Of a DNA stretch of 64,000 nt, positions 43,565 to 50,696 are shown piece after piece. The first letter of the stretch is position 1. Every line of letters begins with the position of its first letter. The stretch is from Candidatus Latescibacterota bacterium (GTDB lineage Bacteria > Latescibacterota > UBA2968 > UBA8231). Both the position numbers and the translations under genes were made by a program. The notes under the pieces are model-generated. The model worked only from the letters and a program-made list of their open reading frames with translations, made no database searches and was not told where the DNA came from. The stretch spans positions 608,001 through 672,000 of the forward strand of contig OZ253462.1 in NCBI GenBank assembly GCA_965261395.1, given 5' to 3'.

Positions 43565-44518
43565 TTAAGCGCCCACGGCGCGGGTGCGAACTTGGTCGAG
43601 GCCGACGGCCAACAGGAGCACTGCGCCGCGCGTTACATCCTGCCAGAAGCTCGACACATCCATCAGCGTCAGCCCGTTGTTGAGGGTGCCGAGCAAAAGC
43701 ACCGCCAACAAGGTACCCCAGACCGTGCCGCGCCCCCCGAAGAGACTCGTGCCACCCAAGATCACGGCCGCGATCACCGTCAACAGATGCTGCCCCGCCG
43801 CGTCGGGTGCCGCCGCGTAGAGCATGGCCGCCAGGATTAGACCGCTGACCGCTCCGCTGAGGCCGGAGAGGACGTAGAGGATCATCAAGGTGCGGGCGAC
43901 GGGAACGCCAACGAGCCGGCTAGCTTCGGCGTTGCTGCCTGCGGCATAAACGAAGCGACCGAAGCGAGTTCGGGCGAGCACCCAGCCGAGTGCGCCATAG
44001 ACCAGCAGCATCAATACCAGCGGCACCGGCAGCCGCAAAAGCTGGCCACTGCCGAGCCAGTTGAAACCGGCTTCCATCAGCGGTTTGGTTAGCCCGCCGG
44101 TCAGGACTAGGGCCAGCCCACCGATGACGCTCATCGTGCCCATGGTGGCGATAAGCGGGTTGAGCCCGAGGCGTACGGCCAACAGGCCGTTGAGCAGTCC
44201 GATGCCCCCGCCCAGTGCCAGCGCGATGAGACAAGCGGTGACAATGCCGACGCCCAAGGCGTGGAGCAGCGCGACGACGACCCCGGCCAGCCCGGCCACT
44301 GCCGCCACCGACAAGTCGAGACCCCCGGCGATGATCAGCGGCGTTTGCAACGCGCACATCAGGCCGATAAAGGCCATATTAGCGCCAATGCTCATCATAT
44401 TGTCGAAGGACAAAAACCAAGGCGAGAGTACGCTGAAGAGCACGGCGACCAAGAGGTAGAACGCCAACAACAAGGCGACGCCAGCACCGGGGCGATTTAA
44501 TAAAGCAGCGATACTCAT
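43565..44518 (-). CDS. Sugar ABC transporter permease (RbsC-like)
   Basis: GGLDLSV, TRFGRFVYAAGSN.EA, IAAVILGGTSLFGG. Confidence 0.92.
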   Translation of the reverse strand: MSIAALLNRPGAGVALLLAFYLLVAVLFSVLSPWFLSFDNMMSIGANMAFIGLMCALQTPLIIAGGLDLSVAAVAGLAGVVVALLHALGVGIVTACLIALALGGGIGLLNGLLAVRLGLNPLIATMGTMSVIGGLALVLTGGLTKPLMEAGFNWLGSGQLLRLPVPLVLMLLVYGALGWVLARTRFGRFVYAAGSNAEASRLVGVPVARTLMILYVLSGLSGAVSGLILAAMLYAAAPDAAGQHLLTVIAAVILGGTSLFGGRGTVWGTLLAVLLLGTLNNGLTLMDVSSFWQDVTRGAVLLLAVGLDQVRTRAVGA

Positions 44519-46026
44519 TGAGGGGCCTTCGCGGTCGGGGTGTGGAGCAAGTCGGCCGGAGCCGCGCCGCCAGAAAAGCGGCTGGACACCCGACCGCGGT
44601 CGAGGACGATGGAACGGTCGCAGACGCCGGCGACTTCTTCGGCGTCGGAGGAAATCAAGAGCACGGCAAGCCCCTGTTGGGTCCACTGCCGCAGCGCCAA
44701 GTAGAGCTCGTGGCGGGCGCCCAAGTCCACGCCTCGGGTCGGTTCTTCGAGGATGAGCACCTTGAGGCCCTCGACCAACCAGCGGGCCAAGCAGGCCTTC
44801 TGCTGGTTGCCGCCCGAGAGCAAGCGCAGCGGTTGGTCGAGGTGAGCGGCGCGAATCCCCAAGCGGTCGATCCAGCTTTGCGCGTGGCTTGCTTCGCGCG
44901 GCTTGGACACGGAAAACAAGCGCACGAAGCGGTCGATAAAGGGCAGGGTGATATTGGCACGGACGCCGAGGTCGGGGACGATGCCCTCGCGTTGGCGTTC
45001 GGCAGCGACAAAACCGATGCCCGCGTCGCGGCCCCGGCGCGGGTTGGTCGGGGTATAGGGCGCACCTCCGAGCGCAATGCGTGCGTTGGGCAGCGGACCT
45101 AGCGCACCGTAGATGGCCCGGCCGAGTTGGTCAATTCCCGAGCCAAGCAGGCCGAAGACGCCGAGAATCTCGCCGCGGTGGATCGCAAAGGACACGTTGT
45201 CGAGCGCGCCGGGCAAGCTCAGGTTCTCGACCTCCAGCGCGACCTCGCCGGTGCTTGCGCCGCGCGGTGGGTAGAGTTCGTCAACAGTGGTGCCGAGCAT
45301 GGCGTCGAGGACGTCGCGCCGCGAAGCAGTGGCGGTGGCGAAGTCGCCGGCGTTTAGCCCATCGCGGAGCACGGTGATGCGGTCGGCGATCTCGAAGACC
45401 TCGTCGAGGTAGTGGGAGATGTAGATGATGCCGATCTGCTGCGCCTTGAGTCGCTCGACCACGGCGAAGAGCGCTTGCACCTCACGATCGGCGAGGGCGG
45501 CGGTCGGCTCGTCCATGACGATGATCCGCGCTTGACCAGCGAGGGCGCGGGCGATTTCGACTAGGCGCTTGTGCGGCGCGGAAAGCCGATGTACCGGCGC
45601 GTCGGGATCGAGGTCGCAGCCGAGCCGATCGAGCAATGCCCGCGCTTTGGCGCGCAGCGCCGGGCGATCTACCTGTTTGCCAAGCCACGAGCGTTTGAGC
45701 GGCAGGTCGGCGATGAGGATGTTTTCGGCGACCGTGAGATCGGGCAAGACCGATACTTCCTGGGGCAAAAAGCGGACGCCGTGGGCGATGGCCTCCTCGG
45801 GCCGGTCGTAGCGCACTGCCTGACCGTCGCAGTGGATGGTACCGGCGTCGCGGCGGTACACGCCGCAGAGGATCTTCACTAGGGTGGATTTACCCGCCCC
45901 GTTGGCGCCCAGCAGCGCTAGGACCTCCCCGGCGTCTAAACGGAGATCGACCTCGCGTAAGACCTGGGCGCTGCCGAAGGATTTGCAGATGCCTGCCATC
46001 TGCAACAAGGGTGCGGTATGGCCCAT
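44515..46026 (-). CDS. Sugar ABC transporter ATP-binding protein (RbsA-like)
   Basis: GANGAGKST, MDEPT, LSGGNQQK, EPTRGVD. Confidence 0.94.
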   Translation of the reverse strand: MGHTAPLLQMAGICKSFGSAQVLREVDLRLDAGEVLALLGANGAGKSTLVKILCGVYRRDAGTIHCDGQAVRYDRPEEAIAHGVRFLPQEVSVLPDLTVAENILIADLPLKRSWLGKQVDRPALRAKARALLDRLGCDLDPDAPVHRLSAPHKRLVEIARALAGQARIIVMDEPTAALADREVQALFAVVERLKAQQIGIIYISHYLDEVFEIADRITVLRDGLNAGDFATATASRRDVLDAMLGTTVDELYPPRGASTGEVALEVENLSLPGALDNVSFAIHRGEILGVFGLLGSGIDQLGRAIYGALGPLPNARIALGGAPYTPTNPRRGRDAGIGFVAAERQREGIVPDLGVRANITLPFIDRFVRLFSVSKPREASHAQSWIDRLGIRAAHLDQPLRLLSGGNQQKACLARWLVEGLKVLILEEPTRGVDLGARHELYLALRQWTQQGLAVLLISSDAEEVAGVCDRSIVLDRGRVSSRFSGGAAPADLLHTPTAKAPQ

Positions 46027-46027
46027 G

Positions 46028-47200
46028 CTAGTGGTCGGGGATCAACTGCTCGTAGCCGGCGAGTTCGGGCTTGCCCTTCAGGGTGGCCAGATGTTCGACA
46101 AAGGCTTCCTGTGGGAAGACGTAGTCGAAGCCCGGCTCGCCTTGGCATTCGTACTCAGGGTAGAATTGGCAGATATTGGCTGGCTGGACCATTACGTGGT
46201 TGACCGAGACCGCCGGCGGCACGTCGCGGCCAGCTAGACGCATCAGACTCAGCGGGATGAGATAGTTGCCGTAGCGCTCGGGGAAATAGGCGACCGAGGC
46301 GATGAAGTGCTCCTCGGCGACCATCGTCTCCAGCTCGTCGGCACCCTTGCCGACGACCAGCGCGTCTTCGCCGCGCCCCTGCTGCTGTACGGCGCGCAGC
46401 ATGCCGGAGACTGACTGGTCGTTAATGGCGGTGATCAGGATTGGCGCACCTTGGGGGATGCGTCCAAGCGCGTTGCTCATCTGCTGGAAGGAGTACTGTA
46501 GCGTATTCTTGGTGTCGATGCGGATGATGCGCTCGGGCGGGAAGCCGGGCAGCGAGGCGAGGAATCCGGCGATCTGCCCCTCGGTGCGCATGGCCGGGAT
46601 CGCGCCCGACTGCGGCAGTTCGCCAACGACGAAATACCCCTCGGTGAGCGCCTGATCGCCAAAGCGCACTTTGGCCGCCTGCGCCAGATAGGAGCCGCCC
46701 ATAAAACCCGAGCGGGGGTTGTTGGCGCCGAAGTAGGTGGCACCCGGCATGGGGATGTCGATGGCGACCACGCCGATCTGCTTGCGGTTGAAGTGCTGCA
46801 TGATCGCCGGGCCGAAATTGACGTCGGTTTGGAACTCGATGCAGAAGTCAACTTGGCGTCGGGCAAAGCTCTCGGCGTTGGCGAGGGCGGTCGGCCCGTC
46901 GAGCCGATTGTCGGCGATCAGCAGTTCGATGCCGGCGGCCTCGGCGTTGCGCTCAATGCTCTTTTCGACCTTGATGCCAAAGCTGATGTCGCGCTGCAGG
47001 TTGGCAAAGCCAAAGACTAGGTTTGCGCCATTTTTAGGGGGCGAGTGTTGCGCGGCTTCGGCAGCCATAGCCTGTAGCGCTGCCGGCGGGAGCATCAGCC
47101 CGTCGTAGGTCGCCGGGTCGAAGCCGTGGAACCCTTCGCTCGATGCTGGGACTGGGGCGAGAAACAGACAGGTGACGAGAATAAGTCGATTCGGAATCAT
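46028..47200 (-). CDS. Sugar ABC transporter substrate-binding protein
   Basis: Signal peptide, ADNRLD, AIDIP, GANN, IND; first gene of the ABC operon. Confidence 0.88.
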   Translation of the reverse strand: MIPNRLILVTCLFLAPVPASSEGFHGFDPATYDGLMLPPAALQAMAAEAAQHSPPKNGANLVFGFANLQRDISFGIKVEKSIERNAEAAGIELLIADNRLDGPTALANAESFARRQVDFCIEFQTDVNFGPAIMQHFNRKQIGVVAIDIPMPGATYFGANNPRSGFMGGSYLAQAAKVRFGDQALTEGYFVVGELPQSGAIPAMRTEGQIAGFLASLPGFPPERIIRIDTKNTLQYSFQQMSNALGRIPQGAPILITAINDQSVSGMLRAVQQQGRGEDALVVGKGADELETMVAEEHFIASVAYFPERYGNYLIPLSLMRLAGRDVPPAVSVNHVMVQPANICQFYPEYECQGEPGFDYVFPQEAFVEHLATLKGKPELAGYEQLIPDH

Positions 47201-47317
47201 AAAAATCTCCGTGAGAGACCGTCGTCTTTAGGCGACGGCAGGATAACGGTTCAACAGGCGATGGGCTGGCAATGCACAAGGCATTATCTGTCCCTGAGTC
47301 TGTTGAAATCTACATCT

Positions 47318-47346
47318 TTGCGTAATGAAAATAAACTCACTATGTT
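47318..47346 (+). promoter_or_regulatory. Probable tnpB promoter (leaderless)
   Basis: TTGCGT-17 nt-TATGTT, ATG 47354 follows after 7 nt. Confidence 0.5.
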
Positions 47347-47353
47347 TAGGTGC

Positions 47354-48487
47354 ATGGAAACGATTAGGACCCTCTCTTGCAAGTTGGTGGTTCCGCCGCC
47401 GGTAGCTGCTCGCATTGACGCGACACTTGAAGCGTTTGCCGCAGCCTGCAACTTCGTGGCTGATTGGGGAAATGAGCACAAGCGCCATCGCCAATACGAT
47501 CTGCACAAGGGCTGCTACCGCGACGTGCGCGAGCAGTTCGGTCTGTCGGCTAACCTCGCCGTCCGTGCTATTGCTCGGGTTGCGCCCCGGTTGGCTAATC
47601 CTAAGACGCGGCACAGTCAGTTCAAGCCGACCAGCATCGACTACGACGCTCGCATCTTCAAGCTGGACGTGTCGAGCGAGACGGTCAGCTTGCGCCTGCT
47701 GGATGGTCGCTGCATCCTCGCGCTGGCCTTGGGGGACTTTCAGCGCGAAGGGTTGGTTGGTCAGAACCCCACTAGTGCCACGCTCAAGAGAGGCCACAAG
47801 AATCGTTACTACCTCGATGTTCAGGTTAAAGACGAAGCGCCCGAGCCGCCCAATGATGCGGACCTTGATGCCACCCTCGGCGTCGATCTGGGGCTCCGCC
47901 AGATCGCCACCGATTCCGCAGGACACCAGTTTCAAGGGCAAGACCTTGCCGACTATCGCCAGCATCGCGCTGACATTCGTGCGTCGTTGCAGGCGAAGGC
48001 AGATACCGGCAGTCAATCCACGCGCAAGGCGTGTCGCCGGGCACTCAAACGGCTTTCCGGTCGGGAGCGACGCCACCAGAAACGGGTCAACCACGAAATC
48101 AGCAAGCAGCTTGTCGTCTTCGCCAAAGAACACGGGCTGGCTATTGTCTTCGAGTGCCTGAAGGGCATCCGTGACCGCTGCCGGTTCCGCAAGAGACAGC
48201 GCCGACCACTCCACTTGTGGGCGTTCTACCAGCTTCAGCAGTTTGTCGAGTACAAAGCTGCTCGTGCGGGCATCCGCGTCGTGTTCGTCGATCCGCGCTA
48301 CACGTCTAAGACATGCGCGGAATGCTTGTATATCGGCCTTCGCCGTCAAGATGATTTCTCCTGCCAAAATTGTGGGCAGCGTTCCCATGCCGATTTCAAC
48401 GCGGCGAGGAACATTGCCCGCTGGGGCCTCGCTGTAATCCGAGGCGAATACTCCCTACTCTCCTGTGCGCTCCCAAGCGGCGGATGA
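47354..48487 (+). CDS. tnpB: TnpB RNA-guided endonuclease
   Basis: RuvC-I GVDLG, RuvC-II IVFECL, VDPRYTSKTC, Zn finger CAEC/CQNC, RuvC-III ADFNAARNI. Confidence 0.95.
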   Translation: METIRTLSCKLVVPPPVAARIDATLEAFAAACNFVADWGNEHKRHRQYDLHKGCYRDVREQFGLSANLAVRAIARVAPRLANPKTRHSQFKPTSIDYDARIFKLDVSSETVSLRLLDGRCILALALGDFQREGLVGQNPTSATLKRGHKNRYYLDVQVKDEAPEPPNDADLDATLGVDLGLRQIATDSAGHQFQGQDLADYRQHRADIRASLQAKADTGSQSTRKACRRALKRLSGRERRHQKRVNHEISKQLVVFAKEHGLAIVFECLKGIRDRCRFRKRQRRPLHLWAFYQLQQFVEYKAARAGIRVVFVDPRYTSKTCAECLYIGLRRQDDFSCQNCGQRSHADFNAARNIARWGLAVIRGEYSLLSCALPSGG

Positions 48488-48549
48488 GTGGGAGGGTAAA
48501 GCTGCCTGCTTTAGCGGCAGTGCGATTACAGATGCACTTTCGTTTGGAA
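48400..48549 (+). ncRNA. Predicted omega/reRNA of TnpB (5' limit uncertain), guide about 48530-48549
   Basis: By TnpB family rule the RNA spans the tnpB 3' end, the right-end hairpin and the flanking DNA; not independently folded. Confidence 0.5.
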
Positions 48550-48633
48550 ATGGGCTGAGAATATACGGAGCGGCTAGCGGGTGGCTCAAGGTGCGGGGTG
48601 GATGCCACCGCGCTCAGCCTACTTTTCAGGAGC

Positions 48634-48667
48634 GATGCGGTTCGTTAAGATGCGGTTCGTTAAGATG
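48634..48667. repeat. Perfect 15-bp tandem duplication
   Basis: GATGCGGTTCGTTAA x2 plus GATG. Confidence 0.85.
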
Positions 48668-48762
48668 TCCGTCCCGTCGCCGTTGCGATTGACAGAAACC
48701 AAGCCGCATACCAGCGCCCGCAGCAGAGGAGTGCTGGCGACAATACCGAAAAGGAAAACACT

Positions 48763-49899
48763 ATGCTGACCAAAGAAGGATGCCGCACGCGGCAGCAACG
48801 CCTGTGTGCGCGGCTGGCCGAACTCGACATCGATGCGGCCGTGATCAATCACCCAAAGGAAATCTACTACTTCACTGGGATAATCATCCCCGAAGAGTTT
48901 CCTGGCCCGCCGGCGCTCCTCTGGCTGGGGGCTGATGGGCGCTCCTTGCTGATCGCGCATACCGACGAAGGCGAGCCGTGCGCCGACGAGTGTTTCACCT
49001 TTTCCCTCAGCGTCGGCGGCACGGTCACGCCCGACTTGCGCGAGGTGATAAGTGGGCTAATCGTCGATACGCTGCGGGCCAAAAAGCCGGCGGCTGGGCG
49101 CTTGGGCTGGCAGAGCGAGTTTTTGCCGCGTCGCTTGGGACTGGCGGTTGAGGAAGGGCTGGGCAAAACGCCCGCATGGGTCGCGGTTGATGATCTGCTC
49201 GCCGACATGCAGGAGGTCAAGGATCCCGACGAAATCGAGCTGCTGCGCAAGGTCGTGCAGGTCGATTTGGCGGCCTACGCCGCGGCGGAAGCGGCGATCG
49301 CTCCGGGCGTCAACGAGCTGGAGGTGCTAGCAGCGGCGCAGCGAGCAGCGCATCTGGCGGCCGGTGAGAAGGTTTTCCACGACGGCGACTACCAGTGCGG
49401 CGAACTGGGCGGTTTTGCGCGCAATCGCCCGATTGAGGCCGGAGAAATCTACGTCATCGACGCTTGGTCGGTGTACCGCGGCTATTGGGCCGACTTGTGC
49501 CGCAGCTTTGCGGTGGGCGAGCCGACCGAGGTGCAGCATTCCGTCTTCGAGCACGTCAAGGGCTTTCACGACCGCGTCGGCGAGTATTTGCGACCGGGCA
49601 AGGACGGCCGCGAATGCGCGGTGGCCATGGACGCCTATATCCGCGAGCATCCCAAGCTGGCCGACGTCGGCTTGATCCACCACGCCGGGCACAACATCGG
49701 CCTGCGGGCGCACCAGATGCCCGATCTCAACAAGGAGCGCGGCGGCACCCTGCGCGTGGGCAATGTGGTCTCGGTCGAGCCGGGGGCCTATATCCCCGAG
49801 GCGCGGGCAGGGGTGCGATTGGAAAACATGTACCTGATTACCGAGGACGGCTTGGAGAACTTGTCGCCGTATCCAATGGAATTGGGGGCGCACTGTTGA
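48763..49899 (+). CDS. M24 (Xaa-Pro peptidase/creatinase-like) protein
   Basis: VKDPDEI, ID...GYWADLCR, GHNIGL..H, VEPG, RLEN. Confidence 0.88.
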   Translation: MLTKEGCRTRQQRLCARLAELDIDAAVINHPKEIYYFTGIIIPEEFPGPPALLWLGADGRSLLIAHTDEGEPCADECFTFSLSVGGTVTPDLREVISGLIVDTLRAKKPAAGRLGWQSEFLPRRLGLAVEEGLGKTPAWVAVDDLLADMQEVKDPDEIELLRKVVQVDLAAYAAAEAAIAPGVNELEVLAAAQRAAHLAAGEKVFHDGDYQCGELGGFARNRPIEAGEIYVIDAWSVYRGYWADLCRSFAVGEPTEVQHSVFEHVKGFHDRVGEYLRPGKDGRECAVAMDAYIREHPKLADVGLIHHAGHNIGLRAHQMPDLNKERGGTLRVGNVVSVEPGAYIPEARAGVRLENMYLITEDGLENLSPYPMELGAHC

Positions 49900-50696
49900 G
49901 CGAGGTGCTCGAATTTGCCGAAGACCTCGCCCGGCGCGCTGGTGTGCTAATCGCCAAAGCACGGGCGGACCGGGCGCTGGATCTGAGCTACAAGGAAGGG
50001 ATCGAGCTGTTGACGTCGGCTGATCTGCAGTCCGACCAGCTCATCCGCAGCGAGATCGAAAAGACCTTCCCCGAACACTACATCCTCTCCGAAGAGTCTT
50101 CGCCCGACATTGCGGATCCCGCACGGCTACGCGGCTCTTTGTGGGTCATCGACCCGATTGACGGCACCGTCAACTACGCCTATAACCAGCACCAAGTAGC
50201 CGTGTCCATTGCCTTTGCTAAAGGCGGCCAAGTGCAGGTCGGAGTGGTGCACTGCCCGTTTGTGGACGAGACCTTTACCGCTCGGCGCGGTGCAGGTGCT
50301 TGGCTCAACGGCCAAGCCATCCGGGCCAGCGAGTGCAATCAGCTATCCCGCGCCCTGATTGGCACGGGCTTCCCCTACGCAGCCGAGGAAAGAGTGGCAC
50401 TGGTGGAGCGCTTGCGCCGCGTCCTCGGACACTGCCGCGACATCCGCCGCGTAGGCTCGGCTGCAATTGATCTCTGCTGGGTGGCGATGGGCCGACTCGA
50501 CGGCTTTTACGAGGCGCTCAAGCCCTGGGACTTGGCGGCAGCGGCCCTGATTGCGCGGGAAGCGGGCGCTCACGTCGGGCACTTACAACCTGTGGAGGGC
50601 GAGCTGCCAGAAGAATTGGACGGCCGCGACTTGGTCGCAGCCGCGCCGGGAATCTACCAACAACTGGTCGCGCTTTTGCGCGGCACCCCGTCGTAG
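49896..50696 (+). CDS. suhB: Inositol monophosphatase family
   Basis: SEE, WVIDPIDGTVNY, RRVGSAAIDL, KPWDLAAA; TTG start overlaps the upstream stop. Confidence 0.88.
   Translation: MSEVLEFAEDLARRAGVLIAKARADRALDLSYKEGIELLTSADLQSDQLIRSEIEKTFPEHYILSEESSPDIADPARLRGSLWVIDPIDGTVNYAYNQHQVAVSIAFAKGGQVQVGVVHCPFVDETFTARRGAGAWLNGQAIRASECNQLSRALIGTGFPYAAEERVALVERLRRVLGHCRDIRRVGSAAIDLCWVAMGRLDGFYEALKPWDLAAAALIAREAGAHVGHLQPVEGELPEELDGRDLVAAAPGIYQQLVALLRGTPS

Follow-up and report, generated by a model that had tools for sequence, protein, structure and literature searches.

The window analyzed here, a 64,000-nucleotide stretch of contig OZ253462.1 from an uncultured Latescibacterota lineage, contains a sugar ATP-binding cassette (ABC) transporter operon whose genes for a substrate-binding protein (SBP), an ATPase and a permease are read on the reverse strand. 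Directly against the SBP start codon lies an insertion sequence (IS) of the IS200/IS605 type that carries tnpB and no tnpA. The original prediction for this DNA was that the element had inserted exactly at the operon's start codon and supplied a new ribosome-binding site (RBS), and all of the coordinates that it gave match the sequence on direct check. Here we show that the GGAG standing 6 nucleotides (nt) before the SBP ATG is IS DNA, not host DNA, and that genuine start codons are occupied by copies of the element at a much higher rate than by TCAT sites in general. The ATGA overlap, at which start and stop codons share bases, is the commonest gene boundary in prokaryotes, and we think it likely that this IS family is adapted to sit harmlessly at ATGA start sites.

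The element and its insertion site

Read on the reverse strand, CAT at 47198-47200 is the ATG that starts the SBP gene, as had been proposed, and a Peripla_BP_4 match confirms the gene. The TCAT that includes this triplet is the reverse complement of ATGA, and insertion at TCAT therefore sets the left end of the IS against the start codon. In six congeners (L024, L025, L027, L028, L030, L031) the site is uninterrupted, with TCGGAATCAT joined directly to AGATGCACTTTCG (in its longer form, TCGGAATCAT to AGATGCACTTTCGTTTGG), and all six read TCAT/AGATG. The empty junction foreseen in the original prediction, GGAATCAT/AGATGCAC, was found in these congeners, and on the gene strand the empty site reads GAAAG-7 nt-ATG, again as foreseen. 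The boundary is ambiguous by 1 nt, with A at both 47201 and 48530. In copies of 73-83% identity, homology begins at 47195-47197 and finishes at 48529-48535, and the flanks are unrelated from the next base. Left ends start directly after TCAT in 11 of 12 aligned copies, beginning AAAAATCTC[C/G] or a close variant, and right ends terminate in GATTAC in 13 of 14. Because the empty sites and the other left ends set the boundary directly after TCAT, the CTCC that is read as GGAG on the gene strand is derived from the IS. The predicted GGAG and its 6-nt spacer before the ATG are thus borne by the element itself, and the host-derived RBS that would have refuted the prediction is not what the copies show.

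Subterminal hairpins are found at both ends, without terminal inverted repeats, and in other copies they stand at the equivalent position with different stem sequences. The right end carries AAAG, a hairpin and TTAC, which is the IS608 guide/cleavage pair, and GAGA immediately precedes the left hairpin; both had been recognized in the original prediction, which deduced a TCNT target from GAGA and took TCAT to be that target. That deduction agrees with the wider collection of insertions described below, where TCAT is present at 31/31 left-end junctions and stands in register in 21 of the 22 matches to a left-end pattern that did not itself contain TCAT. It also agrees with an autonomous tnpA+tnpB sister family in the same genus (tnpA of 131 aa), which has the same right-end hairpin within AAAG..CTTAC and a left end with guide GGGA and target CCAT, so that GAGA/TCAT and GGGA/CCAT differ by a one-for-one compensatory change. 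Single guide variants (AGGA, TGGA, GATA) occur with the target unchanged, and we therefore do not claim an exact pairing rule.

The encoded TnpB is full length, with Pfam matches to Cas12f1-like_TNB (4.5e-24) and OrfB_IS605, and alignment to solved Cas12f and TnpB chains finds the RuvC D-E-D residues intact (GVDLG, the E in IVFECL, and HADFNAARNI); a CxxC..CxxC zinc finger is also present. Among 10 copies compared, the last ~230 nt are the best-conserved stretch of the element. By analogy with other TnpB elements, this stretch is presumed to act as the omega-RNA scaffold, and the flank just past the right end as the TnpB guide. For this stretch 66 base pairs are predicted, just 3 of them with compensatory changes, and an Rfam search over 46000-50000 gave no family match besides two sub-threshold chance hits.

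No tnpA lies in the element, and its own genome holds only a fragment (34/121 profile positions in a 75-aa frame); with no intact tnpA there, this copy looks non-autonomous and, for now, is probably unable to move. Lack of tnpA is usual among tnpB-only elements, and a related tnpA element could plausibly mobilize them in trans. Six congeners do carry intact tnpA+tnpB elements whose right-end hairpin is the same. Partial Y1_Tnp matches (profile 24/40-121) were also seen inside frames of 1,203-1,288 aa (G030:C1:1910658, G012:C1:3515915, G027:C1:707139, G007:C198:1958), which may represent a large protein that contains an HUH Y1 domain.

The window's genome has one copy of the element along with five distant tnpB paralogs of 31-39% identity. 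Across 61 related genomes, copies at 73-83% identity are restricted to the same genus and its family, and in a phylum-wide search of 168 genomes the right-end pattern was found solely in the window's own genus. A second tnpB lineage (L094, L102, L103), 35-37% identical to the TnpB of the window, has the same left end and TCAT target. One further full-length copy (L047/L090, at G010:C1, ~3296400) has its left tip replaced, with a right-end-like sequence, ..GGGATTAC, just upstream; this arrangement may be the remnant of a tandem or nested insertion.

Table 1. Positions, within the window, of the element's parts and of the transporter genes and leader beside it
Feature	Position	Strand	Remarks
TCAT target / transposon-adjacent motif (TAM)	47197..47200	+	reverse complement ATGA; ATG is the SBP start codon; kept in six empty sites
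tnpB-only IS200/IS605-type element, 1,329 bp, without target duplication	47201..48529	+	empty sites join 47200/1 to 48530
Left-end tip	47201..47218	+	A/T-rich 6 nt, then CTCC (47207-47210); gene strand reads GGAG-ATTTTT-ATG
Left guide tetranucleotide GAGA	47215..47218	+	directly 5' of left hairpin; from the sequence
Left subterminal hairpin CCGTCGTC-TTTA-GGCGACGG	47219..47238	+	stem of 8 bp with a single G-T pair; TTTA loop
Promoter-like site facing tnpB, TTGAAA-18-GAAAAT	47303..47332	+	consensus scan only
tnpB, 377 codons and stop	47354..48487	+	start METIRTLSCKLV common to copies; Pfam
Open frame antisense to tnpB and in codon register with it; 386 codons, starting at ATG 48388	47228..48388	-	stop TAA 47230-47228
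Presumed omega-RNA scaffold (tnpB 3' end through right end)	48300..48529	+	by analogy
Right end	48498..48529	+	AAAG 48498-48501, hairpin 48502-48520, TTAC 48526-48529
Right hairpin CTGCCTGC-TTTA-GCGGCAG	48502..48520	+	from the sequence
Flank forming putative omega-RNA guide (native SBP 5' leader)	48530..48549	+	by position; GAAAG-7 nt-ATG on gene strand
SBP gene, intact, 390 aa, signal peptide	46028..47200	-	Pfam Peripla_BP_4
ABC ATPase	44515..46026	-	Pfam ABC_tran
ABC permease	43565..44686	-	Pfam BPD_transp_2
ABC operon promoter-like site TTGAGC-18-TATATT	48560..48589	-	consensus scan

The displaced SBP gene has the same length as five empty-site orthologs and is 94-97% identical to them. Its native leader and promoter-like site now lie past the right end of the IS, ~1.33-1.36 kb from the SBP ATG, and this leader/promoter stretch is 91-98% conserved across congeners versus 77-87% for the coding flank. 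The stretch (48530-48600; L024, L025, L027-L031 and others) is multiply placed in some genomes, three times in G030, and at L029 the flank on its left is another one. Paralogous operons seem to share it as a regulatory cassette. The leader has also been hit a second time, independently: at L113/L132 (G028:C87), an autonomous tnpA+tnpB IS605 element with target CCAT lies in the orthologous SBP leader, oriented the other way and ~19 nt short of the SBP ATG. Farther out, between the operon promoter-like site and an M24 peptidase gene that is read divergently (48763-49899), two tandem copies of GATGCGGTTCGTTAA lie at 48636-48667.

Start codons among the insertion sites

Left ends were gathered by DNA search, by scanning 31 genomes of the genus with the TCAT-free left-end pattern, from one metagenome copy and from five further hits of the DNA search. 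The resulting census holds 31 junctions, which we take as independent insertions because their flanks differ. It excludes the copy with a replaced left tip and no TCAT (L047/L090), two 5'-truncated copies (L045, L049), two right-end fragments (L018, L038) and three unrelated pattern hits that have no TnpB or hairpin (L068-L070). A metagenome scan with the right-end pattern returned 4 loci, only one of which (L071) is a real copy.

At 17 of the 31 junctions, the reverse-strand ATG within the target opens an open reading frame (ORF) of at least 100 aa. These are recognizable genes: 16 of the 17 have Pfam matches (L106 has none), and the matched models begin near residue 1, as in a STAS domain (residues 7-108 on profile positions 4-106), a response regulator (5-116 on 1-110), an FtsH_ext domain (15-97 on 5-102) and, twice, an MR_MLE_N domain (28-126 on 25-117). 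Others encode HisG, a SIMPL protein behind a signal peptide, a pyridoxal-phosphate (PLP) decarboxylase, a helix-turn-helix (HTH) protein, a methyltransferase, and LRR and FG-GAP lipoproteins. When the empty sites are reconstructed, most show a native Shine-Dalgarno (SD) sequence 4-10 nt upstream (for example AGGAGG, GAGGAG or AAGGGA), and in 7/11 no earlier start lies between the preceding in-frame stop and the ATG. A further three of the other 14 junctions resemble the starts of short genes (a VapB/RHH-like frame of 83 aa, a PD40 lipoprotein-like frame of 68 aa and an 85-aa ORF), and these we counted against the start-codon hypothesis. One MR_MLE gene, beginning MKITGVTPWL, has the element at its ATG in one genome (L054, in G002) and another element 20 nt upstream in a second (L046, in G012).

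Two null rates were used for comparison. The window's own genome has 34,985 TCAT sites, of which 24.2% open an ORF of at least 100 aa (4.8% as the first start after a stop). A stricter null considers only insertions that break no gene: from 4,997 crude ORF-based gene calls, 1,104-1,595 ATGA starts stand against 3,897 intergenic TCAT sites, a share of 22-29%. Finding at least 17 of 31 has P = 2.5e-4 against 24.2% and P = 2.3e-3 against 29%. The original prediction held that the element can target start codons, and the part of that claim which stands is the enrichment (17/31 versus 24.2%). The enrichment describes where copies persist and is not evidence of a transposase aiming at start codons.

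Putative translation signals at the ends and on the reverse strand

In 21 of the first 26 junctions the left tip reads, on the gene strand, GGAG, GAGG or GGAGG followed by 5-6 A/T-rich nt and the ATG, and an SD-like core can be recognized by eye in 4 of the 5 junctions added later. The host 16S rRNA 3' end holds the canonical anti-SD CCTCC. The left tip would provide the displaced gene with a portable Shine-Dalgarno sequence and A/T spacer for ribosomes to use. Two cases elsewhere argue, from the importance of the genes concerned, that the IS-borne signal is used. At L092 (G021:C1, ~1427057), ftsH starts directly after a 212-bp remnant of a small-derivative left end, which is the only sequence upstream of the gene for at least 212 nt; because the right part of the element is gone, this IS-derived leader seems to have become fixed as the ftsH 5' region. 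In another genome, a 108-bp mini-element sits at the start of a response-regulator gene.

The right end may serve the gene on the other side of an ATGA boundary. Its cleavage motif TTAC is GTAA on the reverse strand and so carries a TAA. Insertion before ATGA splits the last codon of an upstream gene, changing NNA to NNG, and makes TAA the next three bases, GTAA following in 17/17 reconstructed sites. At 4 of the 12 reconstructable start-codon sites (L039, L048, L106, L091), the TGA frame is open upstream for 249 to 814+ codons, and the last-codon changes at these four (GGA>GGG, CAA>CAG, and GCA>GCG twice) are all silent. We infer that the right end gives the upstream gene a new TAA after a synonymous change.

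Between the two ends, the strand that host transcripts would read is largely free of stops. In the window the antisense frame is ended by a TAA that is itself the left-hairpin loop in its reverse-strand reading; this stop shares the frame of the SBP ATG and precedes it by 27 nt. The corresponding frame is open for 321-426 codons in 9/9 full-length copies. Such openness is rare in the genome at large: of 938 own-genome genes of 330-430 codons, 6 have no TTA, CTA or TCA codon, and ~1.2% are at least 95% open in the antisense direction. The nine tnpB copies, in which these three codons are depleted 5-10-fold, contain 0 TTA codons versus 12.1 expected, 1 TCA versus 10.9, and 5 CTA versus 28.2, all five CTA being the same codon, 367. 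Because the 11 other A-ending codons stand at 0.53-1.71 times expectation, the depletion is specific to the three codons that read as stops on the opposite strand. TTA/CTA/TCA codons number 2-4 in the genome's unrelated tnpB paralogs and 0-2 in the tnpB genes of the second lineage (L094, L102, L103). This pattern leads us to infer that the reverse strand is kept free of stops as a path for ribosomes.

Small derivatives of the element show a related arrangement in shorter form. On the reverse strand their right end reads GTAATGCC, and in 4 of the 5 small derivatives with this GTAATG type of right end (three of 437 bp, one of 488 bp) the right-end ATG opens a frame across the whole element, with the TGA of the host ATGA as its stop. 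At L100, the native AGGAGG, once 4 nt away from the host ATG, has come to stand 7 nt from the ATG at the right end. In a deletion derivative of 187 bp the phase is lost.

Together, these features suggest how an insertion could be tolerated. A non-autonomous tnpB-only element would insert 3' of TCAT by peel-and-paste transposition; its right end would end an upstream gene that had finished in the ATGA overlap on the new TAA, and its left tip would supply the displaced gene with an SD and spacer. Host read-through transcripts would be translated across the stop-free reverse strand, avoiding polarity; the ribosomes would come off shortly before reaching the host ATG, 27 nt before it in the window and at the TGA of ATGA in the small derivatives. 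TnpB with a guide matching the empty site would keep the element in place. The original prediction also allowed that the left end might carry a promoter, for which a consensus scan found no support: no outward promoter-like site lies on the minus strand within 47201-47342. Transcription of the SBP gene in the window would have to start at the native promoter and cross the antisense IS, and its expression would require both this read-through of 1.33 kb and the IS-borne RBS. The fullest version of this idea, a 'translationally transparent' cassette for the ATGA boundary that combines an ATGA-complement target, a right-end stop, a left-end SD and a reverse-strand ribosome relay, we put forward tentatively, as a near-even call that leans slightly against it. 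The trait may be general to TnpB elements with CAT-ending TAMs.

Competing explanations and wider meaning

Several observations weigh against an adapted family. Fourteen of the 31 junctions are away from ORFs of at least 100 aa, the autonomous CCAT sister family has no start-codon enrichment (2/9 junctions at long-ORF starts), and the null rates come from crude ORF calls in a single genome. Among the first 26 left tips, 5 carry only GAG or GGGAAG, and what constrains the sequence of the left tip may be the chemistry of transposition, not translation. The codon-depletion probabilities (P = 1.8e-13 and 8.6e-5) overstate the case because the copies are related and the counts are not independent; the codon-specificity control is independent of those values. 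The relay faces difficulties of its own. No convincing SD and start for the antisense ORF were found near the right end of full-length copies, and only 4/9 of them have the antisense stop 26-27 nt ahead of the host ATG; in 2/9 the frame runs past the ATG out of frame, and in 3/9 it stops 120-142 nt short. Missing outward promoter signals in the left end count here as well, as do the RNA data: of four library runs examined, two runs of one study gave contigs (47585-48852 and 47719-49035) that bridge the right junction, without strand or end information and with DNA carry-over possible, and that leave 46974-47298, which includes the left junction, uncovered.

A first rival holds that there is no adaptation at all: copies at start codons would be ordinary insertions left over after gene-breaking ones had been purged, with the left tip and the open frame as by-products of transposase needs and codon usage. 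The operon in the window would then be cut off from its promoter and RBS and would decay. The insertion is seen in one genome only, six congeners being empty; the native promoter-like site is displaced by 1.33 kb with no outward replacement; the sister family is near the null; and RNA contigs fail to cover the left junction. We nevertheless regard ordinary insertion as unlikely. The 17/31 exceeds the 22-29% of a null limited to intergenic and start-codon sites. Depletion is confined to the three codons with antisense stops, other A-ending codons being spared. The SBP gene is intact, full length and 94-97% identical to its orthologs, the genes that carry left ends or remnants at their ATG include ftsH and hisG, and the small derivatives hold a complete ATG-to-TGA frame.

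Selection on the antisense frame could instead point to a real overlapping transposon protein gene with its own function rather than to a ribosome path. The frame is open in 9/9 copies, and the codon depletion does show selection on it. Its first ATG, 141-142 nt inside the right end in a poor upstream context, is retained in 8/9 copies through a CAT rather than a CAC histidine codon. Against this, the product has no Pfam match, no convincing SD precedes the ATG, and both ends of the frame vary between copies: one lies 13 to 225 nt into the element at the right end, and the stop falls anywhere between 142 nt ahead of the host ATG and a point past it. In the small derivatives the frame consists of unrelated sequence, and what stays constant is the right-end ATG and the TGA of ATGA. 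We consider an overlapping gene improbable. Still more improbable is that TnpB and its guide were domesticated as an RNA-guided regulator of the ABC operon, as in the TldR proteins that are described as sitting near ABC transporters and targeting upstream of oppA (PMC10705468): the likeness of a TnpB-family protein with a would-be guide flank (48530-48549) matching the operon's own SBP leader, beside its promoter-like site, is one that any TnpB element has with its own empty site by construction, and we reject TldR identity for a mobile element whose RuvC D-E-D and zinc finger are intact, whose TnpB is full length, and which occurs at many unrelated sites with both ends present and intact.

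The element has much in common with characterized members of its family. IS608 of Helicobacter pylori cleaves 3' of TTAC, 19 nt 5' of its left hairpin, and has its right cleavage motif 10 nt 3' of the right hairpin, each motif being recognized by a 4-nt guide 5' of the hairpin foot, with AAAG as the left guide (PMC3201880). The element described here shares the subterminal imperfect hairpins, the 4-nt guides and insertion 3' of a tetranucleotide without duplication, with spacings of 18 and 9 nt versus 19 and 10. It differs in having AAAG/TTAC at the right end, where IS608 has it at the left, in having GAGA/TCAT at its own left end, and in lacking tnpA. Its ends can also be read as translation signals on the reverse strand, of which the available portion of the IS608 account makes no mention (PMC3201880).

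For ISDra2 and the Geobacillus ISGst elements, TnpB with the TAM and guide recuts the empty site, and the TAM is the transposase target; the ISGst5 motif is TTCAT, and TnpB elements showed no orientation bias (PMC10055086). The part of that account available to us mentions no start-codon association, left-end RBS or antisense openness (PMC10055086). Our family resembles them in its RuvC TnpB, in a guide drawn from the flank past the right end, and in a TCAT target related to TTCAT; at the 17 start-codon sites, the flanking gene here points away from the left end. Elements of the IS1341 type likewise carry only tnpB, and palindrome-associated small derivatives keep just the two ends. The tnpB-only copies and short derivatives described here are similar, with the difference that these derivatives hold an ATG-to-TGA frame. 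IStrons, self-splicing introns and inteins are 'stealth' elements that restore host expression by RNA or protein splicing inside genes. The damage-limiting logic is the same, whereas here it would be translational (a stop, an RBS and ribosome transit) and would operate at gene boundaries.

IS605 stem-loops have been noted near Borrelia lipoprotein genes, where they concern 3' flanks and not starts (PMC2775950). Among the papers searched there was no description of IS605-type elements adapted to start codons or ATGA junctions and no text that combines TnpB, TAM and TCAT. Membership in the tnpB-only IS200/IS605 group is known biology; what we did not find in print is the joint occurrence of a CAT-ending target, an SD in the left tip, a stop at the right end and an antisense strand kept open, as a device that would preserve flanking genes. 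IS200/IS605 elements and TnpB are intensively studied as Cas12 ancestors and genome editors, and to our knowledge their ends have so far been read solely as transposase and guide-RNA signals.

If the ends and the antisense strand also carry translation signals that maintain flanking genes, this would explain how such elements persist in compact operons and phage genomes, and would add a third stealth strategy, beside self-splicing introns and inteins, by which the cost of mobile DNA is hidden. It would predict a pairing between an element's TAM and the genomic niche that it occupies, and would offer natural, portable cassettes for insertion anywhere at an ATG. It also carries a warning for annotation: a gene whose RBS lies inside the end of an IS is not necessarily dead.

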